Positions 2,365-46,268 are shown, numbered from the stretch's first letter. The stretch: DNA of 64,000 bases from Candidatus Binataceae bacterium (GCA_963722605.1 CAVRNO010000002.1:1760178-1824177); one strand, 5' to 3'. The notes: generated by a model from the sequence alone, not told the origin. Translations and numbers: made by a program.

Positions 2365-3015
2365 ATGAGGCAACGGTTGTTCATCGGTGCGTTGTTCGGT
2401 GCGTTCCTTGCGGTGATATCCGCGGCAGTTCCCGCGCATGCCGACCTGAAGTTCGCCTATGTTGACGTACAGCGAGCGCTCAATGAGTGCGACGCCGGCA
2501 AGCGGGCCAAGGCCGAATTCCAGGGCAAGGTCACGTCGGTGGAGGCGAAACTGCAGCGGCAGCAGAATGAGGTCCAGTCCCTCAAGGATGAAATGGAAAA
2601 GAAGGGCATGCTGATGAACCAGGATCAGCGCCAAAGCCTGCAGGACCAGTACATGGAAAAGCTCAAGAACTTCGAGCGCGACTACAAGGACTCGAAGGAC
2701 GAGTTACAGGCCAAGGACCAGGAGGTCACGGCGAAAATCGTGCATGACCTTGCGCAAGTCATCCGCACGCTGGGAGAGCGCGACGGCTACACGATGGTGA
2801 TGGAGAAGGGATCGATCCTGTGGGGTGCCCCGGGCATCGATATTACCGACCAGGTAATCCGCAATTACAACGCGATGCACGTGGCGATTGGCTCGGTCGG
2901 CGAAGCCGCCGGCGGCGGGGTATCGCGCGCGAGCGTCCAGCGCGAGCAGGCCGGCGCGCCGGCTCCGTCGGATTTCGGCGCGGCGGCGGCCAAGCGGTCG
3001 ACGATCTCGAAGTAG
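2365..3015 (+). CDS. skp: Periplasmic chaperone Skp/OmpH family
   Basis: Signal-like N-terminus (LFIGALFGAFLAVISAAVPAHA) followed by a long charged coiled-coil (KAEFQGK...QRQQNEVQSLKDEMEKK). Located immediately after bamA. Confidence 0.8.
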   Translation: MRQRLFIGALFGAFLAVISAAVPAHADLKFAYVDVQRALNECDAGKRAKAEFQGKVTSVEAKLQRQQNEVQSLKDEMEKKGMLMNQDQRQSLQDQYMEKLKNFERDYKDSKDELQAKDQEVTAKIVHDLAQVIRTLGERDGYTMVMEKGSILWGAPGIDITDQVIRNYNAMHVAIGSVGEAAGGGVSRASVQREQAGAPAPSDFGAAAAKRSTISK

Positions 3016-3049
3016 GCCGCTCAAAACCAGGTGCGCGAAGTAATTCCCG

Positions 3050-3505
3050 GTGTCTGACGACGCAAAGGTCGCGGAGCTTGGGCGGGTGTTGAGGCTGCTG
3101 CCTCATCGCTATCCGTTTCTGCTGGTCGATCGCATCCTGGAACTGGTCAAGGGCCGCATCGTAACCATCAAGAACGTCAGCTTCAACGAACCGTACTTCG
3201 CGGGGCATTTTCCGGGTCGTCCGGTGATGCCGGGGGTGTTGATCGTCGAGGCGCTGGCGCAGTCGGGGGCGATCCTGGCGCTCAATGAAGTGGGCGCGGA
3301 CCCGGCACCCCTGTTCATGCTGACCGGACTGGACAAAGTGCGCTTTCGCCGCCGCGTAATCCCGGGCGATCAGCTGCGGATGGAAGTGAAGATTCTGAAA
3401 TTTCATCGTCCGTTGTGGCGGATGCAGGCGGTAGCCCGCGTCGGCGACGAATTGGCGGCCCAGGCGGAATTTTCCGCGATGGAAGTCGAGGAGCAAGTCC
3501 GATAG
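3050..3505 (+). CDS. fabZ: 3-hydroxyacyl-ACP dehydratase FabZ
   Basis: Carries LPHRYPFLLVDRI and GHFPGRPVMPGVLIVEALAQ hot-dog dehydratase motifs. Length of 151 aa fits the family. Confidence 0.9.
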   Translation: MSDDAKVAELGRVLRLLPHRYPFLLVDRILELVKGRIVTIKNVSFNEPYFAGHFPGRPVMPGVLIVEALAQSGAILALNEVGADPAPLFMLTGLDKVRFRRRVIPGDQLRMEVKILKFHRPLWRMQAVARVGDELAAQAEFSAMEVEEQVR

Positions 3506-4296
3506 CGGGCCGAATCCATCCCTCCGCGGTCATCGACCGGCGGGCCGAACTCGACCCGAGCGTCGAAGTCGGTCCGGGCGCGGTGATCGGCCCGGAGGTC
3601 AAGATAGGGGCCGGCAGCGTGATTGGGCCCTGCGCGATGATCGAGCGCAATACCACGATCGGCGAGCGCAATCGCATCTGGCAGTTCGCCGCCATCGGCG
3701 CCGAACCGCAGGACCTCAAATTCAAGGGCGAGCCGTCAGTCGTGGAAATCGGCGACGACAACATGATTCGCGAGTTCGCGACCATTCACCGCGGCACCGA
3801 AGGCGGCGGGATGATCACGAAAGTCGGCAGTCACACGCTGGTGATGACGTACGCGCACATCGCGCACGACTGCATCATCGGCGACCACGTGATCCTGGCG
3901 GCGTGCACGGGGCTGGCCGGCCACTGCGCGATCGAGGAGTACGCGATTTGCGAGGGCCAGGTCGGGGTGCATCAGTTCAGCCGCATCGGCACTCACGCGA
4001 TCGTGGCGGCAGGCGCCAAGGTGGCGCAGGACGTGCCGCCGTACTCGATGGTGGCGGGAACCGAGCGCGCGCGGCTGGCGGGCGTCAACGAAGTCGGGCT
4101 GCAGCGGCGCGGCTTCAAGCCCGAAACGATCGCGGCGCTCAAGTCCGCGATCCGCACGCTGTTTTTCTCGAAGCTGCTGCGCGACGATGCGGTGAAGCAG
4201 GTCCTGGACGAGTACGGTTCGGTTGCCGAGGTGCGCCGGCTGGTTGAGTTCATAAACAACTCGAAGCGCGGAGTCGTCGGCCGCGAGCGTGAATAA
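3415..4296 (+). CDS. lpxA: Acyl-ACP--UDP-GlcNAc O-acyltransferase LpxA (start uncertain)
   Basis: Hexapeptide-repeat beta-helix sequence with an LpxA-type C-terminal helical region. The family-typical N-terminus IHPSAVID begins near 3514, but no ATG/GTG/TTG lies in frame between 3415 and that point. The ATG at 3415 overlaps fabZ by 91 nt. Confidence 0.85.
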   Translation: MADAGGSPRRRRIGGPGGIFRDGSRGASPIAGRIHPSAVIDRRAELDPSVEVGPGAVIGPEVKIGAGSVIGPCAMIERNTTIGERNRIWQFAAIGAEPQDLKFKGEPSVVEIGDDNMIREFATIHRGTEGGGMITKVGSHTLVMTYAHIAHDCIIGDHVILAACTGLAGHCAIEEYAICEGQVGVHQFSRIGTHAIVAAGAKVAQDVPPYSMVAGTERARLAGVNEVGLQRRGFKPETIAALKSAIRTLFFSKLLRDDAVKQVLDEYGSVAEVRRLVEFINNSKRGVVGRERE

Positions 4297-19595: not shown

Positions 19596-20756
19596 TCATA
19601 GCCACGCGCGATAGAGCGCGAGCGTCCGCGCCGCCATCTTCTCCATCGAATAATTTTCCACGGCGCGGGCGCGCGCCGCCGCGCCCATCTGCGATCTGAG
19701 CGCGGGCGACTCGGCCAGCCGGCCGATCGCCGACACAATACTATCGGGGTCGGCGGGCGGCACGAGGATTCCGGTGCGATCGTGCTCGACCACTTCGCAA
19801 AGGCCGCCGACGCGGCTGGCAATCATGGGGAGCGCGCTCGTCATGGCTTCCAGAGCGGCGATGCCGAGCCCTTCTTGCAGCGACGGCATCGCGAACGCGT
19901 CCGACGCCCACAGCAGTCCGCGAGGGTCGTCGATTCTGCCGAGCAGCTTGACCCTTTCAGCACATCTCAGATGCACGATCAGGTGTTCGAGGTCTGTGCG
20001 AATCGATCCGTGGCCCGCGATGAAGCATCTCAGCTTGATCGAGGGCGCGGCCGAGGCGAGCGCGGCGACGGCTTCGATGAGATAGCGATGGCCCTTGCGC
20101 GGCTCGAGCGCGCCAAGCGCAGAAATCACGAACTCGTCGCCGGATAATCCGAGCGCGGCGCGCGCCTCGAGGCGTTGCGCTGGAGTCGGCGGGTGGAAGC
20201 GGGCGCAATCGACGCCGCTTGGAACGATGTGAGTGCGCCGGCGATCGACGCCCGCGGCGGCGAGCGAATCGGCAACGGCGCCGGAGATCGCGACCACGCC
20301 ATCGACCGCGCGATTGTACAGGTACGGCGCGAAAACGCGGTTGGGCCTGTAGTCCATCCGGCGCGTAACGACCAGCGCGCGGGCGAAACCGCGCGCAAAC
20401 GGCGCCATCGAATGCGCACGCGAGGTATGGAAATGAACGACGTCGTAACGTTCACGTTTGAGGATCGCGCGCAGGCGTATGCCGGCCGCGAGGTCGATAG
20501 CATTGCGGATGCGCAGCGGATGGCATCTTATGCCCGCGGCGGTGGCCCGCTCCCAGAGCCGTCCCGCGGGATCGCAAATCAGCTCCGCGCGATGGCCCGC
20601 GGCGGCCAGGGCGATCGTCAAGCCCAGCACCTGGGTCTGGCCGCCGGCGAAGCCGAGTTCGGGATCGACGCCGGCGATGCTCAACGCCGGGGCGTCAACG
20701 GTGTCGCTAGTGGGATGCACCTGGATGGGGTCGTCAGGTTGAGCAGTCGGCGTCAT
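19596..20756 (-). CDS. Glycosyltransferase family 4 (GT-B fold)
   Basis: C-terminal E-x7-E region PSLQEGLGIAALEAMTSALPMIASRVGGLCEVV. 386 aa. Confidence 0.8.
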   Translation of the reverse strand: MTPTAQPDDPIQVHPTSDTVDAPALSIAGVDPELGFAGGQTQVLGLTIALAAAGHRAELICDPAGRLWERATAAGIRCHPLRIRNAIDLAAGIRLRAILKRERYDVVHFHTSRAHSMAPFARGFARALVVTRRMDYRPNRVFAPYLYNRAVDGVVAISGAVADSLAAAGVDRRRTHIVPSGVDCARFHPPTPAQRLEARAALGLSGDEFVISALGALEPRKGHRYLIEAVAALASAAPSIKLRCFIAGHGSIRTDLEHLIVHLRCAERVKLLGRIDDPRGLLWASDAFAMPSLQEGLGIAALEAMTSALPMIASRVGGLCEVVEHDRTGILVPPADPDSIVSAIGRLAESPALRSQMGAAARARAVENYSMEKMAARTLALYRAWL

Positions 20757-20844: not shown

Positions 20845-20894
20845 GCAGGGGTGACCCCTGCACGCAGTGTTAAGGCCGCCCGCCGTTGGCGGGC
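20845..20894. repeat. 50-nt double-hairpin repeat, copy 1
   Basis: Sequence gcaggggtgacccctgcacGcagtgttaaggccgcccgccgttggcgggc matches 26551-26600 at 49 of 50 positions. It contains the stems GCAGGGG/CCCCTGC and GCCCGCC/GGCGGGC. Confidence 0.85.
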
Positions 20895-20990: not shown

Positions 20991-23579
20991 CTATTTCTTC
21001 GGCGCGACTCCGGTACAACCCAGCTTCACGGTCTGCGGCGCGGAAAGCGCGTTGTCGTTAATCGTCAACTTCCCCGTATATCTAATCTTGGCCGGCGGTG
21101 TGCACGTGACCTGGACTTTGCAACTCTGCCCCGGGGCAAGCGTGCCGGTGCATTCGCTCCCTGGCACTAGCTGGAAGGTCGAAGGCGATGCGGATTCCAG
21201 TTTCATGATCACCGGCAGCGCCTTTTTCCCTTTGCCGGCATTCTTGATCGTTACCGTCGCAGGTTTGCTGATCGTATTCTCCGTGACCTTTTTGAACCTC
21301 ACAATCTGGGGAGAGATCGTGAGCTTCTCCTTCACCGGCGTGGGGGTCGCAGTCGGCGTCGCGGTTGAGGTCGCAGTAGCCGTAGCAGTCGTCGTGGCAG
21401 TCGGAGTTGCGGTCGCCGTCTCAGTGGGCGTCGATGTCGAAGTTGCGGTTGCAGCGGCTGTGTTGGTTGGCGTCGCAGTTGCCGTCGCCGTCTCAGTGGG
21501 CGTCGATGTTGAAGTCGGCGTTGACGTCGACGTCGCAGTAGCCGTCGAACTTTCTGTGGCGGTCGCCGTGGCCGTTTGAGCCGATGTTGCGGTAGCCGTT
21601 GACGTTGGGGTTGCGGTCGAGGAGCCCGTGGCGGTCGCAGTCGCTGTCGCGGTCGCGGTCGCTGTGTCTGTGGCTGTCGCTGTTGGCGTGGACGATGGTG
21701 TGTTGGTTGCCGTAGGCGTCGGCGATGCGGTTAACTGCCCGAATGCCACCTCAAACGCAATCGGATACCCGTTGCACGCAAGTCCGCCTGTGTGATCGTC
21801 GTAGGTCCACGCATACTGATGCGGGCACGCATTGGAGAATATCTCGTAATACGGCGTGTCCCCCGCATTCGTGCCGTCGCCCGCGGCCCACAGCGCCGCC
21901 GCCTCCCACTCCGGGTTAAGTGGCGATCCGGTACCCTCGAAAAAGCCGCTGATGGTGTCGTACGAGCCCAGACCGACGATCGGCGCGGGGAGGGTGGTTG
22001 CGTTGGAACCCAAGGGAAGGCATGCGACCCCGGTGTTGACGCCCGTCGCGGCGACGCAGGTATAAACCGGACTAGATGAATATCCCCCGCAATGTTTTCC
22101 TTCGTCCGAAGTCGAGGCACAATCGTTCGGCGGCTGTACCGTCGGCGTTCCTCCGCCGTTGGCTGTCGCGCAGATTCCGACCCAAGACGGCAAACCGGCG
22201 ATTCCGGTCACGGTGGGGCCAACCAGGCATTCCTCGCCCGGCGCGCAATCGATATCGCCCCAGCAAGTCGGCGTTCCCTGGTTGCCGGAGAACATCGTCA
22301 CGCCAACGTAGCTGCTGCTCACGGCTCCACTGTCGTTCGCCGCGTCGTACATGTCTTCATACCAGGAGCCGTCCGCGCTGAAGCCGATGCTGTGGACGCT
22401 GCCACTGGGAATCGGGGTCCCGCATTCAAGACTTGTCACGCCCGGCGCACTGACCGGCAATGGATAACTGGCGCCGCATAGCTTGCCTGGGCCGTTGCAG
22501 CCGATTACGCAGGTAAAGCCCCCGCTGCACGACGAAGGATCAGCACCCGTCGGGCAAGCTTCGCATTCGCCTGTCGCACATGCTCCGCCACCGCACGTGC
22601 CGGTGCCGGTCGGCGGTTCGATTACCTGCAGCAAGCTCGGACACACAGCGTTGAGGTCGGTGTTGCAGGCGGTCGAGGCACAGTCAGGACCGCCACCGGT
22701 GCCGGAGTTCGTCACTTTAACGGCGATCGGGTTGTTGTATCCCGCCAAATTGGTAACGTCGTACGTCGCAGCGCCGGCGCCGCCGTCAGCCGCGGAGTTA
22801 TCGGTTATTTCGAATTGCGAGGCCGGAGTTTCCGGACCGAAATTTGCCGGGAGCGGAGTTGAGATAGGAGTCGGCGCAACGCTGGCGCCAGGAGCAGGCG
22901 AGGGCAGGATCGTGTTCTGCCATGAGCCCTGGCACTGCCAGAGTCCGCTGCCGCAATCCCCTGTCCTGCACACCCCGCTTGCGAAACCGCAAAACGAACC
23001 GGCCGCGTAGTACGAAGCACTGCTGCCCGCGGCGGCAACGCAAACCGAGTTCGGCAGCGAGCTGCATGCCCCGTTCGTACCGGTACCGCTGCTGCAATCG
23101 ATCACACATTTGCCGCCGTAGCAGATGTGATTGTTCAACGTCGGATTGCCAGCCTTGCAGGTATTACCCGTCGTGCAGCAATCGCTTTGCGACGTACAAT
23201 CAACGAAATCGTTGTCCGGATCCGCGCCGAAGGTGCCGTTGAAGTCGCATTCGGTGCGCGCCCAGAATGTCCCTGACGTCCAGTCACCCGGCACGCAGAG
23301 AGAGAGCGAACTGCCGGCGTCGAGCTGCCAGTTGTTTTCCGGCGGCGACAGAATCGAACCGGCGTTAACGCTCTCGCCGATCCAGATCGGAAATGAATTC
23401 TGGTTGCGAAGCGTCACGCTCGTCGTGGTGCAGGTTGGCGCCGCGAGCGGCATCGCCCGTGTATTCTGCGCCGTCGCTGGACCGTTAAAGGAAATTACCG
23501 CGCAGATCAGAATTGCAACCAGCGCGGCGAATCCTGTTAGCTTGTACTTCCCGCCGATGTCTCGCATCTGCCCCCCCAA
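20991..23579 (-). CDS. Secreted Cys-rich expanded thaumatin-like protein with Thr/Ala/Pro linker and C-terminal beta-sandwich-like module
   Basis: N-terminal signal/TM segment. Thaumatin-type blocks appear in order: VTLRNQNSFPIWIG, WTSGTFWARTECDF, CRTGDCGSGLWQC (22932-22988), ASQFEIT...YDVTNLAGYNNPIAV, CNTDLNAVCPSLL and YEIFSNACPHQYAWTYDDHTGGLAC...IAFEVAF. A 130-aa T/A/P/S linker is at 21336-21725, and the terminal 114-aa module is at 20994-21335. Confidence 0.6.
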   Translation of the reverse strand: MGGQMRDIGGKYKLTGFAALVAILICAVISFNGPATAQNTRAMPLAAPTCTTTSVTLRNQNSFPIWIGESVNAGSILSPPENNWQLDAGSSLSLCVPGDWTSGTFWARTECDFNGTFGADPDNDFVDCTSQSDCCTTGNTCKAGNPTLNNHICYGGKCVIDCSSGTGTNGACSSLPNSVCVAAAGSSASYYAAGSFCGFASGVCRTGDCGSGLWQCQGSWQNTILPSPAPGASVAPTPISTPLPANFGPETPASQFEITDNSAADGGAGAATYDVTNLAGYNNPIAVKVTNSGTGGGPDCASTACNTDLNAVCPSLLQVIEPPTGTGTCGGGACATGECEACPTGADPSSCSGGFTCVIGCNGPGKLCGASYPLPVSAPGVTSLECGTPIPSGSVHSIGFSADGSWYEDMYDAANDSGAVSSSYVGVTMFSGNQGTPTCWGDIDCAPGEECLVGPTVTGIAGLPSWVGICATANGGGTPTVQPPNDCASTSDEGKHCGGYSSSPVYTCVAATGVNTGVACLPLGSNATTLPAPIVGLGSYDTISGFFEGTGSPLNPEWEAAALWAAGDGTNAGDTPYYEIFSNACPHQYAWTYDDHTGGLACNGYPIAFEVAFGQLTASPTPTATNTPSSTPTATATDTATATATATATATGSSTATPTSTATATSAQTATATATESSTATATSTSTPTSTSTPTETATATATPTNTAAATATSTSTPTETATATPTATTTATATATSTATPTATPTPVKEKLTISPQIVRFKKVTENTISKPATVTIKNAGKGKKALPVIMKLESASPSTFQLVPGSECTGTLAPGQSCKVQVTCTPPAKIRYTGKLTINDNALSAPQTVKLGCTGVAPKK

Positions 23580-23779
23580 GTTCGTTCAGCAGCCAGAAAT
23601 TCCGCTCTCGCTGCGCAAGACCCGGCTTGACATCACTAATGGTAGGAAAATACTACACACGATTATCAGGCGAAGCAATGGGCTCGGCTAATCCGTAGCG
23701 CTGATGATCACACTCGTAGTGTGCAAACACATTTGCTCGGGCTTGAAACCCGCGTAGCTGTTAGAGATTTCAGGAAGAG

Positions 23780-23878
23780 GACGCCGGCGATGCTCAGCGC
23801 CGGGGCGTCAATGGTGTCGCTAGAGGGAACCGGAAAAGCCGCGAAGAAGAAATAGACAGGGCAAAAGCACCTGCACCT
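23780..23878. repeat. Chimeric relic: copy of a GT4 5'-coding segment joined to a copy of the NHL-gene 3' end
   Basis: 23780-23828 matches 20668-20716 at 46 of 49 positions. 23825-23878 matches 26523-26570 (gggaaccggaaaagccgcgaagaa identical, then a degenerate stop and hairpin). The junction falls at the shared GGGA. Confidence 0.75.
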
Positions 23879-24060
23879 GAGTCAAGGAGAATCGCGGAGC
23901 CGGAGTCGCTGCGCTTCGGTCGGGTTTGCTCGGCTCAGACACTCTGGAGACACTGGTTACGATTCGTTGGGCTGTTCCTGCCCGCCATTTGTGTCTCGGG
24001 CGGCAACCTGATAACTCGATATCGATGAATGTCCTCAACGTCGCCGTTCTCCGAGGCTCG

Positions 24061-26550
24061 ATGAAACACTCTTGGGGGAAAGCCCGGATCGGCGTGATTG
24101 CAATCCTCGGCGCGGCCGCGCTGGCGACGGCGGGCCTCCATCGTACTTCAGACCGCGCCTATAGCGCGGATACGATGCCGACGCTCTTTGCTACGGACGA
24201 TTGTTCCGGCGCCGTGACGGCTTATCCCGCCGCAAGCAACGGCGACGTATCGCCGCTGGCCCCGGCGCCTACCGGCCTCGGCCAGCCGAGTTTTGTGGCC
24301 ATTGACGCGAGTGGAAAAATTTACGCCACCAACGCCTGCAACAACACGGTCACCATTTACGCCAGGGGGAGCAATGGCAACACCGCCCCCATCGCCATTA
24401 TCGGCGGGAGCAATACCGGCCTGAGCAACCCACAAGGCATCGCGCTGGATTCCAGCCGTAAAATCTATGTCGCGATCAGTGGCAACACTGTCTCCGGCGG
24501 CTCCATCGCCCCCAGCGTGCTTGTCTATCCGCCGCTGGGAAGCAGCACCGGGCTGCTCAACGAGGCCCCTACCGCCACCATCAGCGGGAGCAACACCGCC
24601 TTGAACAACCCATACGGCATCGCGGCGGATTCCAACGGCAACATCTATGTGGCGGACTCCTCCGCCGGCAGCGTGTTTGCCTATCCGCCGCTGGGAAGCA
24701 GTACCGGGCTGCTCAACGAGGCCCCCACCGCCACCATCAGCGGGAGCAACACCGGCTTGATCAACCCCTACGGCATCGCAGCAGATTCCAGCGCCAGGAT
24801 CTATGTGGCTGACTACTCCGCGAGCAGCGTGTATGTCTATCCGGCACTGGGGAGCAGCGCCGGGCTGCTCAACGAGTCCCCCACCGCCACCATCAGCGGG
24901 AGCGACACCGGCTTGGTCAGCCCATACGGCATCGCGCTGGATCCCAGCGGCAAAATCTACGTGACGGACAACGGCGCCACGAGCGTGTTTGTCTATGAGC
25001 CGCTGGCCAGCCTCCTCAGCGATCCCAATTCTCCAGACGTGACGCCAATCGCCACCATCAGCGGGAGCGACACCGGCTTGATCAACCCGTACGGCATCGC
25101 GCTGGATCCGAGCCGCAATATCTATGTGGTGGACACCTCGAGCGTGCTTGTCTATGAGCCGCTGGCCAGCCTCCTCAGCGATCCCAATTCTCCAGACGTG
25201 ACGCCAATCGTCACCATCAGCACGACCAACACCACCGGCCTGAGCTTCCCACAAGGCATCGCGCTGGATTCCAGCGGCAAAATCTATGTGGCGGATGACG
25301 GTGACAGATTTTGCGATGGTACCGAGAGCGTGTATGTGTATCCCGCCGGGAGCAATGGCAACGTCGCCCCAACCGCCACCATCAGCGGCGCCCATACCGG
25401 CCTTTGCGACCCAATCGGCATTGCGCTGGATTTCAGCGGCAACATCTATGTGGCGGACGACGGCAACCCCAACGCATTCCCATACATTTTCCCCAAGGTG
25501 CTTGTCTATCCGCCGTTGGGAAGCAGCACCGGGCCGCTCAACGAGGCCCCCACCGCCACCATCAGCGGGAGCAACACCGGCTTGGAAACCCCCTACGGCA
25601 TCGCGGCGGATTCCAGCGGTAAGATCTATGTGGCGGACTACGGCGCCACGAGCGTGTTTGCCTATCCGCCACTGGGAAGCAGCACCGGGCTGCTCAACGA
25701 GGCCCCCACCGCCACCATCAGCGGGAGCAACACCGGCTTGGAAACCCCCTACGGCATCGCGGCGGATTCTAGCGGCAATATCTATGTGGCGGATGAAGGT
25801 GACCAAGCTTGCGATGGTACCGAGAGCGTGTATGTCTATCCGCCGTTGGGAAGCACCACCGGGACGGTCAACGAGGTCCCCAGCGTAACCATCAACGGGA
25901 GCAATACTGGCCTGTGCTTCCCAGTCGGAATCGCCGTGGATTCCAGCGGTAACATCTATGTGGCGGATTACGGCACCACGAGCGTGTTTGTCTATCCGGC
26001 GCCGGGAATCAGCAGAGGGCTGTTCGACGAGTACCCCATCACCATTATAAGCGGTCCACTCACAGAACTGAGTAACCCTCAGTTCATCGGCATCCAGCCG
26101 GCAGCAGGGCCGACACCGACCGCGACCAAGACCGCAACGCCGACCGCGACCAAGACCGCAACACCGACTGCGACCGCGACGGCGACGCCAACTGCGACAC
26201 CGACGCCAATCTCGGAGAAGCTGACGTTCAGACCCGCTTCGCTGTCATTCGGAAAAACGGTGACAGTCGGAAAAACCAGCAAGCCCAAGACGGTCACGAT
26301 CAAGAACGCGGGCAGCAAAAAAACAGGCCTGGCGGTGAATATCGAGAGCGAGAGCGTGTTGCCGGCGACGTTCGCGGTCACATCGCAATGCAAACAAACG
26401 CTCGCGCCCGGCAAAAGTTGCAAGGTATCTGTCACCTTCACCCCGGCGGATACGGCGGCGCAGAGTGGAAACCTGAAGATTGTTGACAACGTGCTCGGCG
26501 AGCCACAGTCGGTGGGGCTATTGGGAACCGGAAAAGCCGCGAAGAAATAA
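24061..26550 (+). CDS. Secreted multi-blade NHL-repeat beta-propeller protein with Thr/Pro linker and C-terminal beta-sandwich-like module
   Basis: Signal peptide MKHSWGKARIGVIAILGAAALATAG. About 14 repeats of the type NPxGIAxDSSGxIYVAD..xxSVxVY. The linker is at 26110-26208 and the terminal module at 26209-26547. ATG 24025 and the ORF-track start at 23926 are alternative starts. Confidence 0.7.
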   Translation: MKHSWGKARIGVIAILGAAALATAGLHRTSDRAYSADTMPTLFATDDCSGAVTAYPAASNGDVSPLAPAPTGLGQPSFVAIDASGKIYATNACNNTVTIYARGSNGNTAPIAIIGGSNTGLSNPQGIALDSSRKIYVAISGNTVSGGSIAPSVLVYPPLGSSTGLLNEAPTATISGSNTALNNPYGIAADSNGNIYVADSSAGSVFAYPPLGSSTGLLNEAPTATISGSNTGLINPYGIAADSSARIYVADYSASSVYVYPALGSSAGLLNESPTATISGSDTGLVSPYGIALDPSGKIYVTDNGATSVFVYEPLASLLSDPNSPDVTPIATISGSDTGLINPYGIALDPSRNIYVVDTSSVLVYEPLASLLSDPNSPDVTPIVTISTTNTTGLSFPQGIALDSSGKIYVADDGDRFCDGTESVYVYPAGSNGNVAPTATISGAHTGLCDPIGIALDFSGNIYVADDGNPNAFPYIFPKVLVYPPLGSSTGPLNEAPTATISGSNTGLETPYGIAADSSGKIYVADYGATSVFAYPPLGSSTGLLNEAPTATISGSNTGLETPYGIAADSSGNIYVADEGDQACDGTESVYVYPPLGSTTGTVNEVPSVTINGSNTGLCFPVGIAVDSSGNIYVADYGTTSVFVYPAPGISRGLFDEYPITIISGPLTELSNPQFIGIQPAAGPTPTATKTATPTATKTATPTATATATPTATPTPISEKLTFRPASLSFGKTVTVGKTSKPKTVTIKNAGSKKTGLAVNIESESVLPATFAVTSQCKQTLAPGKSCKVSVTFTPADTAAQSGNLKIVDNVLGEPQSVGLLGTGKAAKK

Positions 26551-26600
26551 GCAGGGGTGACCCCTGCACCCAGTGTTAAGGCCGCCCGCCGTTGGCGGGC
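26551..26600. repeat. 50-nt double-hairpin repeat, copy 2
   Basis: Matches 20845-20894 at 49 of 50 positions. It starts immediately after the NHL-gene stop codon. Confidence 0.85.
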
Positions 26601-26676
26601 GCGGGCCCCTGCCAACGGCTCAATACTGCGCTGCCGCCGCCACGGCCAAGGGCTCCGGCCCCTGCGTTTGGGCGGG

Positions 26677-27369: not shown

Positions 27370-28253
27370 CAGGTTTTGCTCGCCTCCCGAGGCTGCCGCA
27401 CGGGCGCCGATGCGTGGGTGGCGGCGGCTGCGGCTTTGCGTTCCCGTCCCATTCTGGCCGCGAGCATCGCGGCAACGCGGCGGCGACCCGCCCGCCGGCG
27501 CCGGACGGAAAACGCAGCGGCGTATCCGCACCATACGCGCATCCGATCCGTATTGGTGACGCCGCCGAGATCGAGATGCCCGAGCTGAACGAGATTGCGC
27601 ATCCGCGGCCGCTCGAAGCGGCTCAGAATCGTGCGGCGGGTGCGTTCATGATCGATGAAAACGAATTGCGGCGGCTCGACTCCGGTGACGAAGATGTTGA
27701 ACGGGGTCATGTCGCCGTGGATGTATCCGGCGCGATGCAATCGGGCGAGCTCGGCGCCGAGCGCGCGCAACACGGCGCGCCGGGACTCGAGCCGCGCACG
27801 CCTCAAAAAAAGCGCAAGATTAGACCCCTCGACGCGCGCGGTTACTATGATCTCGCGCCCGCCGCCGCGTTCGGCGCCGAGCAGCAGAATTTCCGGCACT
27901 CCGAAGGCATCAGCGCGCAGACTCTCCGATATTGAGGCGACGTGCGCGGCACGGCTGCGCTTGAATATCCGCCTGATTCGATTCAGGCCGCGGATCGGGT
28001 CGAGCAGCTTGAGATAGGCGTCAGGACCTCCAACATGATCGAAATGCTCGAACCATGTCTCGGCATGACGCGAGCGGCGCACCCGAATCGCCAAGGCGCC
28101 GTCGATCGCGGCGAATGCGGAATCGACCAGCGCCTGCCGGAGCCGCGGTGAAAATCGCGCGGCGGGGCCCGGAATGAACAGCGTCCATCCCGCGCGCGTC
28201 AACGGCGGTCCGTCAAAGCCCGGCATCTGCCAGGTGATCCTCTGCCAGGTCAT
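27369..28253 (-). CDS. Lipopolysaccharide kinase (Kdo/WaaP) family protein
   Basis: Contains IHGDMTPFNIFV and FIDHERTRR kinase motifs. The start is chosen at MTWQRITW, which forms an ATGA overlap with the upstream gene's stop. Confidence 0.6.
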   Translation of the reverse strand: MTWQRITWQMPGFDGPPLTRAGWTLFIPGPAARFSPRLRQALVDSAFAAIDGALAIRVRRSRHAETWFEHFDHVGGPDAYLKLLDPIRGLNRIRRIFKRSRAAHVASISESLRADAFGVPEILLLGAERGGGREIIVTARVEGSNLALFLRRARLESRRAVLRALGAELARLHRAGYIHGDMTPFNIFVTGVEPPQFVFIDHERTRRTILSRFERPRMRNLVQLGHLDLGGVTNTDRMRVWCGYAAAFSVRRRRAGRRRVAAMLAARMGRERKAAAAATHASAPVRQPREASKT

Positions 28254-29273
28254 CCGGCCGCTCCACGCATCGCGAGCGCGCTCTTCAAGCCGGCCGCGAC
28301 TTCTTCGGGGGATATTCGCCGCATGCATTCGCGCCCGACAGGGCATTGACGAAGATAGCAGGGATGACACGGGATTGCGCCGCTGATCGCGAGCTCGGCA
28401 AAACCCCACGGGGCGGAGCGCTCGGCGGCGGTAGCGCCCCACAGCGACACTACCGGGCATCCCGTCGCGGCCGCGATATGCATCGGGCCGGAGTCGGGTC
28501 CGAAGGCGACGGCGCATTGGGGAAAGATCGCGATCAGATCGCGGATCGAGGTGCGTCCGGCCAGATTGAGCGCGGGGACGCCGCCCAGGTGGCGCATGAC
28601 TTCGGCGGCGAGTTTCGTTTCACCGGGACCGCCGAGCAACACCGGAAACAGTTTCGGGCGGCCTTCGCCGGGGCTCGCCGCCATCCGGATTACCGCGGCG
28701 GTCGATTCAGGAAAGTAGATGCGGCTTGGCCACGACGAGCCAAGGATCACAGCCAGGATCGGACGCGGCGCATCGACGCAGCATCGCGCGATGCGCGAGC
28801 GCGCTCCTCGTCCGTCGCGGCGAGTCCGAATTCGATCGGCGATGGCGCGATGCCGAGCGCGTCGCCGAACGCCTGGTATTGAAGGAGCTTGAGGCGCATG
28901 TTCGGCTGCGGCGCGATCCGACGATTGGAAAAGAGATAGTTGAACTCCTTGGTGTTGGGCTGGGCGAAACCAAAACGGTCCTTGGCGCCCGAGACTCGCG
29001 AGGTGACACCGCTTTTAAGATGACGCTGAAGGTCTATCGCCAGGTCGAAACGGCCCTGGCGAATTCGACGCAGGAACGAAATGAAGGTCCACGGCGCCGG
29101 GTGCGATCGTACACGATCACCTCGTCGAGCCATCGATGGTGCTCGAGCACTCCGCTGGACTTGGGTTCGACGGCCCACGCGATGTGCGCGCCGGGCCACG
29201 CGTTGCGAATGCGCCCCAGCAAGGGCAGCGCGCGAACCACGTCGCCGATCGCGCCAAGCAGCACGATCAGCAC
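28250..29273 (-). pseudogene. GT9 heptosyltransferase-like gene split over three reading frames
   Basis: The N-terminal piece (29273-29034) carries LIVLLGAIGDVVRALPLL. The middle piece (29199-28747) carries RFDLAIDLQRHLKSG. The C-terminal piece (28750-28250) carries ILGSSWPSRIYFPE...GPDSGPMHIAAATGCPVVSLWG. The span is 1024 nt (3n+1), consistent with two 1-nt losses. Confidence 0.7.
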
Positions 29274-35601: not shown

Positions 35602-36216
35602 ATGAAGATCGTCAAAATCGAGACCCTGGCGAGCAGCGGGCCATTCGCCAAGTCCGAAGCATGGCAAAAGATTCGCAGCGATCTACTGGTCGGGATTAGA
35701 GCGGTTGTCTGGCCGAAGGGGACCAAGAAGTTTACGATCTATCCACAGAGCGGAAAGAAGCGTGGCGAAGGCAACGGCGTCAAGCCGATCAAAGATGGAC
35801 TGATCAAGCGCCTCACGAAAAGGGGATGGGGCAGCGAGATCACAGTCGATCTTGGGGTAACCCCGAATCCGGGAAAATTCGACGCCGTCCTCAAGAGTAC
35901 GGAACATAAGCCGGTTGTGCTGGAATGGGAGACTGGAAATATCTCTTCAAGCCATCGGGCATTGAACAAGATGGCCCTTGGCTTGTGCACTGGCAAGCTG
36001 GCTGCTGGAATTTTGGTTGTTCCCTCACGAAAGCTCTATGTATATTTGACTGATCGGATTGGAAACTTCGAGGAACTGGCTCCCTACCTGAACTTGTGGA
36101 GATCGGTTCCGTATCCGGACGGCGCGGTATTGGAGATCGTTGTCATCGAACAGGATGCGGAAAGCCTCAAGGTGCCCCGAATTCCAAAGGGAACGGACGG
36201 AAGATCGGCTCTCTAG
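35602..36216 (+). CDS. Type II restriction endonuclease, BamHI-like family
   Basis: Blocks match BamHI as I remember it: PGKFDAV (BamHI GGPIDVY), VLEWETGNISSSHRALNKMALGL (BamHI MEFETGNISSAHRSMNKLLLGL), LYVYLTDRIGNFEELAPYL (BamHI LAYYLTDRVTNFEELEPYF) and VPRIPKGTDG (BamHI VPLIPKGSDG). The D...ExE catalytic pattern is retained. Confidence 0.75.
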   Translation: MKIVKIETLASSGPFAKSEAWQKIRSDLLVGIRAVVWPKGTKKFTIYPQSGKKRGEGNGVKPIKDGLIKRLTKRGWGSEITVDLGVTPNPGKFDAVLKSTEHKPVVLEWETGNISSSHRALNKMALGLCTGKLAAGILVVPSRKLYVYLTDRIGNFEELAPYLNLWRSVPYPDGAVLEIVVIEQDAESLKVPRIPKGTDGRSAL

Positions 36217-36219
36217 GTA

Positions 36220-37134
36220 TTGCGCAATATCCCAATATCGGATATTTCATGCATTATGAAGCAGACCCCATTCAAGTGGAAAGAGGAAGTGTTTCAAGCG
36301 GAGGGGTTCTTCAGCAAGGGCAGCCTTCCCATTGTCCCTGTCTTTAGCACCAACCTTGGTACGCTCTTCTCGGCTGACTGCATGACCCTTTTGCCGGAGA
36401 TGGCCAGCGAATCAATCGACACAGTGTTTGCCGATCCGCCTTTCAATCTAGGCAAGAAATATGGCCACAGCACCGACGATCTAAAGCCCGACGCCGAATA
36501 TCTTGACTGGTCGCGGAAGTGGATCTCTGAATGCGTTCGCATTCTAAAGCCCGGAGGTGCTTTCTTCCTCTACAACCTGCCAAAATGGAACGTAATCTTC
36601 GGGGCATACCTAATGGAACTAGGTATGCATTTCAAACACTGGATCGCCGTCGAAATTAGCAGTTCATATCCCATTTCGGGAAGGTTACACCCGAGTCATT
36701 ATGGTCTCCTGTACTGTACTAAGGGCAAAGCGAAGACGTTTCGGCGGATACGCATTCCAATTCAAACGTGTCGCCACTGCGGAGGCGAAGTCAAAGACTA
36801 CGGCGGACACAGGCATGCGATGAATCCCCGCGGCGTGAACTTGAAGGACGTCTGGACTGACATCCCCCCTGTCAGGCATTGGAAGTTCAAGTCCAAGGAC
36901 CGCCGTGCCAACGCTCTGTCGTCCAAAATTCTTGACAGGATAGTTGAAATCAGTACCCACCCAGGTGAGGTCGTGTTTGATCCATTCGGCGGAAGCGGAA
37001 CAACTTATGCGGTTTGCGAAGCGAAGCAGCGGCATTGGATTGGCATTGAGATAGACTACGCGCGGGAGATTGCTGAGAGATTGGAGTCCGGCCAGGTTCA
37101 CCCTCACAAGAATGATGACTACGTCGAGGACTAA
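36220..37134 (+). CDS. Beta-class N4-cytosine/N6-adenine DNA methyltransferase
   Basis: Motif IV FADPPFNLGKKY precedes motif I VFDPFGGSGTT. A CRHCGG Cys pair lies between them. The TTG at 36220 and the ATG at 36256 are both possible starts. Confidence 0.85.
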   Translation: MRNIPISDISCIMKQTPFKWKEEVFQAEGFFSKGSLPIVPVFSTNLGTLFSADCMTLLPEMASESIDTVFADPPFNLGKKYGHSTDDLKPDAEYLDWSRKWISECVRILKPGGAFFLYNLPKWNVIFGAYLMELGMHFKHWIAVEISSSYPISGRLHPSHYGLLYCTKGKAKTFRRIRIPIQTCRHCGGEVKDYGGHRHAMNPRGVNLKDVWTDIPPVRHWKFKSKDRRANALSSKILDRIVEISTHPGEVVFDPFGGSGTTYAVCEAKQRHWIGIEIDYAREIAERLESGQVHPHKNDDYVED

Positions 37135-43554: not shown

Positions 43555-43834
43555 CCGCCGACTGATCGGCACTCGTTCGGCAGCGATTTCGGAGCGCTTC
43601 GACGGGGCGCCCAATTCCTGCACTGACTGTTCCTGCCCGCGATTTGTCGGTCGCGCGGCAGTCTGCTAAATATTCGTCACACTGAAGCCTTGTCACGCCG
43701 CCCGCTCGCCCTTTTGGATTGATATCTAATGGTGCCGCACGTGGAAAACACCCCAGGAGATGAGAGAGAAGCCCCGCTTCGAGGGTGGATGCTTATCGGT
43801 TCTTCCGATTCGGCAGTTGAATGTAATCAGCTTT

Positions 43835-45802
43835 ATGCCTAGCGAACTCCAGAACCTCGACAGCATCTTCAACAGCCGAGTTTTCCGAATCCCGGACTAC
43901 CAGCGCGGATACTCATGGGGTCCGCAGCAGTTGAATGATTTTTGGGAAGACCTCGACCGCCTCGGTGACCAGCGCAATCACTACACAGGACAATTGACAC
44001 TTGAGAAGGTACCTGACGCTGCCTTGAAACAATGGGACGAGGACACATGGCTTATCGAAGGAAAAGGCTACAAGCCCTTCTACGTAGTGGATGGTCAGCA
44101 GCGGTTGATTACGGCCATCATACTTATCAAATGCCTTCTCGACCGGCTCTCCGGCGATGAGCAGGTAGCATTCACGGAGAAGTCTGATCACGTAAAAAAG
44201 TACCTCGTGCAAACAGCGTCAGTGAGCCGGGCCTACCTGTTCGGTTACGAAAAGGACAACCCAAGCTACGAGTACTTTAAGACACAAATCCTCGCTGAGC
44301 CGTCGAATCAGTTTCAAGGTACGGAGACGACATATACCGCAAATTTGGAGGCGGCGAGGGAGTTCTTTCGTCAAAAACTCATAGAAGCGCCACACCCCGA
44401 GATCGAGCGGTGGTTCAAAGCCGTCACGCAGAAGTTCGTATTCAACGTTTATGAGCTGGTGGAGGAGCTGGACGCGTTCGTGGTCTTCGAGACCATGAAC
44501 AATCGAGGCAAGGCGCTCTCAAAATTAGAATTATTGAAAAACCGACTAATCTACCTCTCCACGCTTCTTCCGGAACCCACCGAACAGACAGACCGGCAGG
44601 CGCTTCGTCGGAACATCAACGACGCATGGAAGACTGTGTTTGAGTTCCTTGGGCGTCAGAAGGACGAACCTCTGGATGATGACGATTTTCTGCAGGCGCA
44701 CTGGATCATGTATTTTATCTATGCGAGGGAGCAGGCGGGGCAATTTTCTAATTTTCTTCTCAATGAACACTTTACGACGGCGCGCGTGGGCACTGGCGAA
44801 CTCACCGTCGGGGAACTGCAGCGATACGTGACTAGCGTTCAAGACTCTGTGAGGAAGTGGCATGAACTCCATTTCCCAAATCGAGCCACCGGGCTGGGTG
44901 AACAGGTGCGTCGAGGCCTTGAACGGCTGGGCAGGCTGCGGCGCGGCGCGTTCGAACCGCTAATGATGGCGGCCATGCAGAACCACAGCTTGAATGATGC
45001 GAAACTAACGGAATTTCTGACAGCAGCAGAGCGCTTCGTTTTCGCGATAAGCCGGCTCTGCCAGCGGCGGTCCGACACCGGCGACAGTGAATTCTACCGT
45101 CTAGCCGGGCAATTGTTTCGCCAAGAAAAGACGTTAGCTGATACCACGCAAACCGTGAATGAGAGCACGGAGCGCTATTTTTCTGCGGAAAAAGCACAGT
45201 CAGAAATGCGCGACCTCTTCCTCCGCGGAGAGGGTTTCTATAGTTGGGAGGGACGGCGATATTTCCTGTTCGAGTACGAGCAGCACCTCAAGAACAAGGC
45301 GGGGATGGAAACATCCAAGCTGGATTGGGATGAGTTTATCACCTCCAAAAAGGACCAGGTTACGATTGAGCACATCTACCCCGTTACGCCTGTTGCCGGA
45401 GAGTGGCCATCTTTTGAGGGGAGATCCGAGTCCGAACAGGCGTCTCTAAGGAACTCGCTCGGAAACTTACTGGCGCTCTCGCAGAGCCGGAACTCGAAGT
45501 TTTCAAACCGTCCCTTCGCCACAAAAAAGCAAGATGCCGACGGTGTGCGCGGCTATTTCAACGGGTCATACAGCGAGATTGCCGTGGCGCAGTTTCCCGA
45601 CTGGACACCCGACACGGTTTTAGAGCGCGGCTTGGCGATGCTCGATTTTCTAGAGACACGCTGGGAAGTTTCTCTCGGAACCCGCGCCGAAAAGTTGAAG
45701 CTCCTCAATCTTGAGTTCCTTGAGTCCCCCGTTGAGACCACGGACGAAGCGAGAGTACAAACGCCCAAGACGCGCACGAAAAGAGAGGACATAAGCATTT
45801 GA
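43835..45802 (+). CDS. DUF262 plus DUF1524 protein (GmrSD-like type IV restriction / DndB-ParB-nuclease family)
   Basis: N-terminal FRIPDYQRGYSWGPQQLNDFWEDL and VVDGQQRLITAI. C-terminal His-Me-like TIEHIYPV...SLGNLLALSQSRNSKFSNRPFATKK. GC content is visibly lower than in the flanks. Confidence 0.8.
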   Translation: MPSELQNLDSIFNSRVFRIPDYQRGYSWGPQQLNDFWEDLDRLGDQRNHYTGQLTLEKVPDAALKQWDEDTWLIEGKGYKPFYVVDGQQRLITAIILIKCLLDRLSGDEQVAFTEKSDHVKKYLVQTASVSRAYLFGYEKDNPSYEYFKTQILAEPSNQFQGTETTYTANLEAAREFFRQKLIEAPHPEIERWFKAVTQKFVFNVYELVEELDAFVVFETMNNRGKALSKLELLKNRLIYLSTLLPEPTEQTDRQALRRNINDAWKTVFEFLGRQKDEPLDDDDFLQAHWIMYFIYAREQAGQFSNFLLNEHFTTARVGTGELTVGELQRYVTSVQDSVRKWHELHFPNRATGLGEQVRRGLERLGRLRRGAFEPLMMAAMQNHSLNDAKLTEFLTAAERFVFAISRLCQRRSDTGDSEFYRLAGQLFRQEKTLADTTQTVNESTERYFSAEKAQSEMRDLFLRGEGFYSWEGRRYFLFEYEQHLKNKAGMETSKLDWDEFITSKKDQVTIEHIYPVTPVAGEWPSFEGRSESEQASLRNSLGNLLALSQSRNSKFSNRPFATKKQDADGVRGYFNGSYSEIAVAQFPDWTPDTVLERGLAMLDFLETRWEVSLGTRAEKLKLLNLEFLESPVETTDEARVQTPKTRTKREDISI

Positions 45803-46010: not shown

Positions 46011-46268
46011 ACACTTCTGTCATTCTAGAGCGAAGGCTGCCGGAGCGAAGAATCCCGGATCCGGGTTCCTTCGCTGCGCTCAGGATGACTCAAAAAAGTT
46101 CTAAGAGGCCGTCAGCCCCGCAACTTTGTTTTAATACTGGGTGCAGGGCTCAGCCCTGCCGCGTAGTCGCGAAAAGATGCGCTGCGCAGATTTTCGCGTC
46201 TTCTCACTGCGGGTGCAGGGGCCGCCACCCCTGCCCAAGGAAGTGTGAAACCCACGGCGGGTTTCACA
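46011..46268. repeat. Cluster of REP-like hairpins
   Basis: An imperfect palindrome is centred on GGATCC (agcgaagaatcccgg/atccgggttccttcgct, about 46044-46075). Other hairpins are GCAGGGC-tca-GCCCTGC (46143-46159), GCAGGGG-ccgcca-CCCCTGC (46215-46234) and TGTGAAACCC-acggc-GGGTTTCACA (46244-46268). Confidence 0.5.

Follow-up and report, generated by a model that had tools for sequence, protein, structure and literature searches.

Why should two neighbouring genes for large exported proteins, whose N-terminal parts have nothing in common, end in the same linker and the same C-terminal domain? This question is raised by a divergent gene pair, here called A (minus strand, complete open reading frame (ORF) at 20991–23579) and B (plus strand, complete ORF at 23926–26550), which lies in a stretch of 64,000 nucleotides (nt) from a Candidatus Binataceae genome (GCA_963722605.1, CAVRNO010000002.1:1760178–1824177), referred to throughout as the window. 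The Binataceae are uncultured bacteria, widespread in soil and peat, and we know of no account of how they export or display their proteins. A preliminary description of the locus, made from the sequence alone, had read the pair as an undescribed cell-surface system in which a tail module is moved between different functional heads; the mobility of the tail is borne out by the present analysis and the existence of a new system is not. Diverse acidic heads, a flexible linker and one basic, exchangeable terminal immunoglobulin (Ig)-like domain recur across the lineage, and the reading that we favour, and hold with some reserve to be the probable one, is that A and B belong to a large family of Sec-exported proteins, specific to the Ca. 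Binatus/Binataceae lineage, in which the tail serves as a portable targeting tag.

The two genes are alike in layout: in both products a signal peptide is followed by a head, then by a Thr/Pro/Ala linker, and last by a tail of about 112 amino acids (aa). Their probable ATG start codons are separated by a spacer of 493 nt. When A and B were compared by BLASTP the last 119 aa aligned with 52% identity (E = 2e-23) and no other part of the proteins did, so that the divergent signal-peptide pair with unrelated heads and a common linker and tail, first recognised by eye, stands confirmed, and the alignment of the C-terminal modules proves significant. The modules themselves (A, 20994–21329, minus strand, 112 aa; B, 26209–26547, plus strand) are 52–53% identical. 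Both pass the cut-off of 45 bits for the NCBIfam family NF012200, choice_anch_D, with 47.2 bits for A (residues 748–844) and 55.5 bits for B (residues 761–856). The tail of B also passes three Pfam families of related domains, namely ASH (PF15780; 33.2 bits against a threshold of 27), Cep192_D4 (PF22073; 40.9 against 35.5) and HYDIN_VesB_CFA65-like_Ig (PF22544; 31.9 against 25.5), whereas A stays below all three thresholds (19.2, 19.7 and 21.1 bits respectively) although it is clearly homologous to B.

An AlphaFold2 (AF2) model of the B tail, built on an alignment of 37 homologs, is an eight-strand beta-sandwich with a mean predicted local distance difference test (pLDDT) score of 92.9. Foldseek returned 32 matches to this model in the PDB (E up to 1e-3), the majority of them ASH/PapD-like Ig domains, and the nearest solved folds are the ASH domains of HYDIN and CEP192 and the Ig-folds of VesB (4LK4) and VesC (6BQM), with query-normalised template-modelling scores (TMq) of 0.63–0.75. 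The tails of A and B are thus Ig-like beta-sandwiches of the choice-of-anchor D/ASH type, the fold that had been suggested from inspection alone, and we regard the identity and architecture of A and B as tail-bearing modular proteins as close to certain. Neither protein runs on beyond the sandwich. A ends in ...GCTGVAPKK and B in ...LGTGKAAKK, 5–6 residues past the last strand, and no hydrophobic segment follows the module in A or B; searches of A and B against NCBIfam at E up to 1 gave no match to the models for PEP-CTERM, LPXTG or GlyGly-CTERM, and likewise none to the type A/B sorting-domain models of type IX secretion (T9SS; NCBIfam/TIGRFAM, E up to 1). Within each protein the charge is distributed very unevenly, the heads of A and B carrying net charges of -38 and -40 against +12 (isoelectric point (pI) 9.9) and +10 (pI 10.0) in the respective tails, each of which contains 15 Lys.

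The same tail occurs on many other genes. Relatives were collected by means of CKVSVTF[TKS]P; as this was the sole peptide pattern used, the counts that follow are lower bounds. It found 88 relatives, the closest of which all come from Ca. Binatus/Binataceae metagenome-assembled genomes, and relatives of the tail at 50–77% identity are almost confined to such genomes, from soil and peat; a few close relatives lie on short contigs binned to other lineages, of which one labelled 'Bacteroidetes' (L043) is probably mis-binned since it carries a Binatus-type copy of the D6 repeat described below. Ca. Binatus soli UBA7539 has at least 8 genes with this lysine-rich form of the module, the K-tail, at 7 loci, and at 8 of the surveyed loci two or three K-tail genes lie within 20 kb. 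In NCBI the homologs are labelled "choice-of-anchor D domain-containing protein" or "thaumatin family protein". Neither B nor the protein P0018 has an exact entry in the assembly index.

All 41 intact genes from Binataceae loci have one copy of the module, and no domain comes after it. The final residue is Lys in 40 of them, and 38 have a short Lys-rich extension after the module, usually of 4–7 residues past the GTG motif and of the KAAKKK or KAPKTKK type. The idea that the C-terminal peptide constitutes a strict motif, such as a PDZ ligand, was considered and is unsupported, as both its length and its sequence vary apart from the terminal Lys. In most of the 41 genes the 50 residues before the module are more than 80% Thr/Pro/Ala/Ser, and most K-tail proteins have N-termini resembling signal peptides. 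The Binataceae modules, of about 110 residues, have a mean net charge of +8.9, a mean pI of 9.8 and on average 15.3 Lys against 0.7 Arg, in a genome of about 62% GC, while the mean pI of the heads is 4.7. Their conserved core reads ...C...L.PG.SC.V.V.F.P.... The heads themselves are of at least six kinds: NHL propellers predominate (28 of 44), and the others are sedolisin pro-domains (5), a right-handed beta-helix, a sortilin/BNR-like fold, a weak match to GH30, or unrecognisable. The thaumatin head of A is the sole example in the surveyed K-tail sample.

Related domains were also seen in Terriglobales (Acidobacteriota; loci L037–L080, for example L042 10001–10606), where two or three of them stand in a row at the end of the protein, the last residues being ...SPQTxSLTGTGD or GTGK, with neither a Lys tail nor a Thr/Pro linker; the Acidobacteriota are a second lineage where this Ig-like domain keeps consistently to the C-terminus. 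On an ENA long-read contig (L001, 2514–8363) a K-tail NHL gene and several FG-GAP genes are broken into overlapping fragments, probably through assembly indel errors, and broken genes of this type would explain why many database matches to the module are short 'stand-alone' proteins of 90–140 aa.

If the tail is a unit that moves between genes, then heads and tails should not share one history, and they do not. Homologs of the A head (36–93% identity, 800–850 aa) have the same overall layout. In P0187 and P0188 the head is 79–80% identical to that of A, whereas the tails are 34–40% identical in partial alignments. Nearly all A-head homologs except P0186 carry a different tail subtype, scoring 41 bits on NF012200, which is 27–40% identical to the A tail over partial lengths, against 53% between the tails of A and B. 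Two further A-head orthologs, P0209 and P0212, have the Ig-like tail replaced by a C-terminal region composed of a hydrophobic stretch followed by basic residues; that of P0209 is a weak match to the NCBIfam 'lipo-invert putative C-terminal anchoring domain' (23 bits, under the cut-off of 37). The closest relative of the locus, L082 (GCA_052916065.1; 93% nucleotide identity), retains the order of A, a family 4 glycosyltransferase gene (GT4) and YicC, together with a divergent B-like gene. The head of this B-like protein is 81% identical to that of B, with fewer blades, and it ends in two other choice-of-anchor D domains (78 bits) that are 39% identical to the B tail. These discordant identities indicate that heads and tails have different histories and that tails have been exchanged, which, with the number of head types, substantiates the proposed movement of the module between heads. 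The expectation that related genomes would carry the same tail on further genes was likewise correct, but they do not conserve the A/B pair, which is kept only in L082.

The exchange of tails presumably takes place at the repetitive linker DNA. The linker of A (Thr/Pro/Ala/Ser, 134–136 aa; 21330–21731, minus strand) is encoded by degenerate repeats of 12 and 18 nt (family D2), and the linker of B comprises 38 aa of Thr/Pro/Ala (26095–26208, plus strand). The two linker DNAs form inverted repeats of 72–80 nt, 71–75% complementary and 4.4–4.7 kb apart (21336–21407 with 26113–26184, and 21599–21678 with 26130–26209). Recombination between these repeats would invert the heads together with the spacer, so swapping the tails between the heads.

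No third intact copy of the tail was found in the window by tblastn, just a scar of about 40 nt in the spacer between A and B. At 23780–23852 (plus strand) a 49-nt copy of the 5' region of the GT4 gene (23780–23828), derived from 20667–20715, is fused through 16 nt of microhomology to the remnant of a third K-tail module, of which the last 13 codons or so persist (...VSLEGTGKAAKKK and the stop codon; 23813–23852). The corresponding spacer of L082 (1.4 kb; compared stretch 2719–3901) contains a frameshifted linker and K-tail pseudogene whose intact 3' part is 79% identical to the B tail at the amino acid level and ends in GTGKAAKKK before the stop codon, and in addition a 142-nt copy of the GT4 5' region, a copy of D6 and a 109-nt element. 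Comparison of the two sequences indicates that the spacer in the window derives by deletion from a longer form, that of L082 exceeding it by about 1.1 kb. A and B are neighbours because tail-bearing genes have been duplicated, have decayed and have recombined locally at this site, and not because they are parts of one machine. A promoter scan of the spacer gave a single sigma-70-like site (23627–23654), no more than is expected by chance.

The 50-nt repeat noticed beside the genes at the outset exists, in two copies that are identical at 49 of 50 positions (20845–20894 and 26551–26600), but it does not bracket the locus. This element, D6, consists of two GC-rich hairpins; the stability of its fold does not significantly exceed that of shuffled sequence (z = -1.55). 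One copy, in an extended double-hairpin form (26551–26646, plus strand), directly follows the stop codon of B, and the other (plus strand) separates the 3' end of A from the GT4 gene. Further copies occur in L001, L002, L003, L007, L031, L041, L043, L081 and L082, often with their first base just past the stop codon of a K-tail gene and in one case (L001) directly after dnaG. D6 is thus a dispersed element of Ca. Binatus genomes, resembling repetitive extragenic palindromic (REP) or terminator sequences, and its presence in at least nine other Binatus-type loci, including that after dnaG, rules it out as the boundary of a mobile element or island. A second family of small dispersed repeats appears to be represented by the 109-nt element with two hairpins (46160–46268), whole or partial copies of which are found at 90–98% identity in L082, L031, L081, L010, L009, L027 and L035.

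What, then, might the tail do? After Sec export, the folded basic Ig-like domain would act as a portable targeting tag in one or both of two ways. First, the tail would hold its acidic cargo by charge on the cell's own anionic envelope, that is, the core of the lipopolysaccharide (LPS) or exopolysaccharide, with the linker serving as a stalk. Such charge-based retention is put forward because of the charge asymmetry between heads and tails, the Lys tail and the anchor-like hydrophobic C-terminus of two homologs; we offer it tentatively, as a fair candidate that falls somewhat short of being probable. Second, in addition or instead, the tail could be recognised for translocation across the outer membrane by a type II secretion system, in analogy to the Ig-fold of VesB from Vibrio cholerae, which is an EpsC-PDZ-dependent type II secretion signal and works when grafted onto beta-lactamase (PMC12369372). 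Such a recognition role seems to us rather unlikely. The two roles are compatible.

A more ambitious version, which we judge unlikely, would make the tail a C-terminal domain of a new class, devoted to sorting and retention in diderm soil bacteria, with the single form in Binataceae and a tandem variant in Terriglobales. Here a folded Ig-like tag would serve for translocation across the outer membrane and then for retention by charge on phosphorylated LPS or exopolysaccharide; it would be analogous in function to the C-terminal domain (CTD) of T9SS substrates and independent of it in mechanism, and the tail cassette, bounded by the linker repeats and by the downstream REP-like hairpin, would be exchangeable between genes.

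Several observations weigh against a targeting role. The best matches in the superfamily are giant proteins with 10–60 tandem copies, so that elsewhere the domain is mostly a tandem stalk repeat and its role may be purely structural. In most genes the tail beyond the GTG motif ranges from 1 to 7 residues, which means that there is no strict peptide motif; nor is basic charge obligatory, since three thaumatin orthologs (P0210, P0215 and P0216) have acidic tails, even if a basic character prevails among the other terminal subtypes that thaumatin orthologs bear (a pI of at least 8.9 in 18 of 23). The sample, resting as it does on one peptide pattern, is biased. Regarding a secretion machinery, Pfam annotation (E up to 1e-5) found no type II secretion genes among the 40 larger ORFs of the 64-kb window outside A and B, and a survey of Binatota genomes nowhere uses the words secretion, pili, Gram-negative or lipopolysaccharide (PMC8262859).

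The first of these points is also the chief argument for the alternative that the tail is a generic stabilising or spacer Ig-like domain with no targeting role, shared by A and B through common descent and duplication. The superfamily is enormous (41,866 proteins at E up to 1e-3 in a profile search of 1.84 billion representative proteins), its foremost members have the composition typical of structural stalk repeats, and our reading of the literature found no function for choice-of-anchor D, nor anything on this Binataceae family. Deletion of the VesB Ig-fold, moreover, destabilises the protease (PMC12369372). The Binataceae modules nevertheless differ from what such a spacer would lead one to expect: the domain is strictly C-terminal and single, it prefers Lys to Arg consistently in spite of a GC-rich genome, and it closes on a terminal Lys almost without exception. 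Furthermore, orthologous heads have not simply lost the basic terminal subtype but have swapped it for another or for an apparent membrane anchor, and repeated replacement rather than loss argues for selection on a property of the C-terminus. A purely structural domain is therefore, in our judgement, an improbable explanation.

A second alternative keeps a binding role for the tail and moves its target outside the cell, the domain being akin to a carbohydrate-binding module (CBM) that docks enzymes onto polymeric substrates or negatively charged soil particles and not onto the surface of its own cell. Head, Pro/Thr linker and small C-terminal beta-sandwich is indeed the classic layout of CBM-bearing glycoside hydrolases; some of the K-tail heads are hydrolase-like (the sedolisin pro-domains, the beta-helix of pectate-lyase type and the weak GH30 match), thaumatin-like proteins bind beta-1,3-glucan, and a strong positive charge would bind any polyanion. 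However, the modules lack an aromatic platform, with means of 0.05 Trp and 0.12 Tyr and hardly an aromatic residue beyond the Phe of the core, and the single invariant Phe probably occupies a core position, as the residues on either side of it are those usual in a buried beta-strand. NHL propellers, for which no activity on polysaccharides is evident, make up about two thirds of the heads, no CBM family is among the Pfam matches of A and B at E up to 1, and the fold of the tail matches ASH, PapD and VesB rather than CBMs. Together these features leave the CBM-like alternative distinctly improbable.

Finally, that the two genes constitute a dedicated cell-surface system tied to the surrounding LPS genes is hardly credible and is largely refuted by the lack of synteny, for although the pair is divergently arranged within an LPS-core cluster and L082 preserves that arrangement, orthologs of A with 77% and 67% identity have unrelated surroundings that include no adjacent B-like gene, the B ortholog of L082 bears a different tail, the genes flanking the pair in the window are shared by 0 of 80 surveyed loci, K-tail genes are scattered over at least seven loci in one genome, and the same 40 ORFs of the window include no sortase-, exosortase-, rhombosortase- or T9SS-like gene and no other secretion-system gene, the co-occurring sorting or secretion gene that had been sought.

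With it fails the reading as an undescribed system, because the module passes the curated threshold of a very common named family and has no conserved linkage to the pair, the very grounds that the preliminary description had named as counting against itself. What remains is a lineage-specific usage, terminal, polycationic and exchangeable, of a common domain, and A and B are new members of known families.

The head of A deserves description in its own right. The frame is open for 862 aa from a TTG at 23579, and its probable start is the ATG at 23567 (MRDIGGKYKL...), the start also called in the 93% identical ortholog P0186 (MRDIGG). Signal peptides were assigned by eye in both proteins on the strength of a run of basic residues, a hydrophobic run and an AxA-like site, and both N-termini are predicted to be of Sec type, with no lipobox seen; that of A, with n-, h- and c-regions and an AxA site, would be MRDIGGKYKLTGFAALVAILICAVISFNGPATA, with cleavage before Q (23469–23567, minus strand). 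The head proper (21732–23468, minus strand) matches the Pfam Thaumatin family PF00314 in three separate stretches, with 64.4 bits against a cut-off of 27.4, and the first 620 residues of A include 39 Cys, in agreement with the Cys-rich thaumatin-like domain recognised earlier. A family profile of the head searched against the PDB likewise retrieved thaumatin-like proteins in three segments, the best being Mal d 2 (E = 1.6e-21). The AF2 model is of moderate quality (pLDDT 72), and Foldseek matched it to thaumatin-like proteins from plants, fungi and bacteria (E = 1.6e-8, target-normalised score (TMt) about 0.5). The head of A is therefore a thaumatin fold whose three conserved segments are split by two large Cys-rich insertions, of about 75 and 220 aa, which account for its length of about 580 aa against the 210 aa or so of a typical thaumatin.

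In B the frame is open for 874 aa from 23926, and the probable start is the ATG at 24061 (MKHSWGKARIGV...), in agreement with the start of the L082 ortholog, MKASWGKARIGV. Its predicted Sec signal peptide, again by eye, is MKHSWGKARIGVIAILGAAALATAGLHRTSDRAYS, with cleavage before A (24061–24165, plus strand). The head (24166–26094, plus strand) is recognised by the Pfam NHL family and by motif count. NHL (PF01436) scores 174 bits against a threshold of 20 over nine reported stretches, so that the NHL propeller is secure; the estimate of about 14 blades was too high, as the motif GIAxDxxGxIYVxD counts 11 NHL-type blades, possibly 12, which probably make up two propellers. The DNA of the head contains 156-nt tandem repeat units (family D1).

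The surroundings of the pair had been described as LPS and glycosyltransferase genes, and this is accurate for the LPS-core genes around it (GT4, a family 2 glycosyltransferase (GT2), a WaaP-like kinase and a GT9 heptosyltransferase), but the immediate left neighbours are YicC, Gmk and SpoT, and only then the lipid A genes. In all, the remainder of the window encodes BamA, Skp, LpxA/I/B/K, MsbA, WaaA, GT87, SpoT, Gmk, YicC, NuoD and unrelated genes, with a BamHI-type restriction-modification system, GmrSD and a hydantoinase besides. The GT9 heptosyltransferase is split into two adjacent minus-strand ORFs, at 28250–28750 (C-terminal half) and 28747–29199 (N-terminal half), which could reflect a frameshift, a pseudogene or a sequencing error. 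A BamHI-type endonuclease, next to which lies an N6/N4 DNA methylase, and a GmrSD-type enzyme (35602–37134, 43760–45802) coincide with the two stretches of lowest GC content in the window (0.54–0.57 against about 0.63) and are likely to be horizontally acquired defence genes.

How A and B relate to known systems can be seen first in their heads. The head of A corresponds in three segments to the fold of bacterial thaumatin-like proteins such as that of Amycolatopsis rifamycinica (PDB 7P22), from which its two insertions set it apart in size. B exceeds the cut-off of the NCBIfam subfamily ScyE_fam (115 against 80) and in this respect resembles the NHL-repeat propellers of ScyD/ScyE type; the score is uninformative on function, because it is summed over many repeats and there are no scytonemin genes near B.

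As for the tail, choice-of-anchor D domains (NF012200, with Pfam ASH, the HYDIN/CFA65/VesB-like Ig and Cep192_D4) share with it the NF012200 score (in B the Pfam scores as well), the PapD-like sandwich and the conserved core. The superfamily consists mostly of tandem arrays, whereas here the domain is single, last in the protein and polycationic, with about 15 Lys. Choice-of-anchor D owes its name to homologs in which one or another sorting signal (PEP-CTERM, LPXTG, T9SS) comes after the domain, a trait that the profile itself does not require, and no sorting signal follows the module of A or B. Signal peptide, acidic head, Thr/Pro/Ala linker and basic terminal choice-of-anchor D domain together provide a recognisable signature for what is probably a sizeable share of the exoproteome of Binataceae.

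Modular glycoside hydrolases with CBMs, of the Cellulomonas/Cellvibrio type, likewise begin with a signal peptide and a head, go on to a PT-rich linker and a small beta-sandwich, and shuffle their tails, but the tail of A and B has neither a CBM signature nor an aromatic face, and most K-tail heads are NHL propellers. The CTDs of T9SS substrates in Bacteroidota are comparable as C-terminal Ig-like sandwiches of about 100 aa that are carried by many unrelated secreted proteins, with many paralogs per genome. They are export and attachment tags, which are cleaved off and replaced by anionic LPS. A and B belong to another lineage, match no T9SS model and show no sign of processing, and no T9SS genes were seen in the window.

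The closest parallel among proteins of known function lies with VesB and VesC of V. cholerae, two proteases that are substrates of type II secretion. VesB differs in running on after its Ig-fold into a GlyGly-CTERM anchor that is processed by rhombosortase, whereas A and B stop after the sandwich, and sequence identity between VesB and the tail amounts to some 19%. The fold itself is shared (4LK4, TMq 0.66, E = 7.8e-5; 6BQM, TMq 0.63; the family PF22544 is named after VesB), and in both cases an Ig-fold stands C-terminal to a secreted head with a Sec signal peptide, an enzyme in VesB and VesC. Were the tail only a structural Ig domain, the locus would be an ordinary one; were it an export or retention tag, a very common domain would gain a function, and surface proteins would be easier to predict in metagenomes. 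By its fold the tail of A and B is linked to VesB, the only bacterial Ig-fold in this family whose role has been demonstrated.

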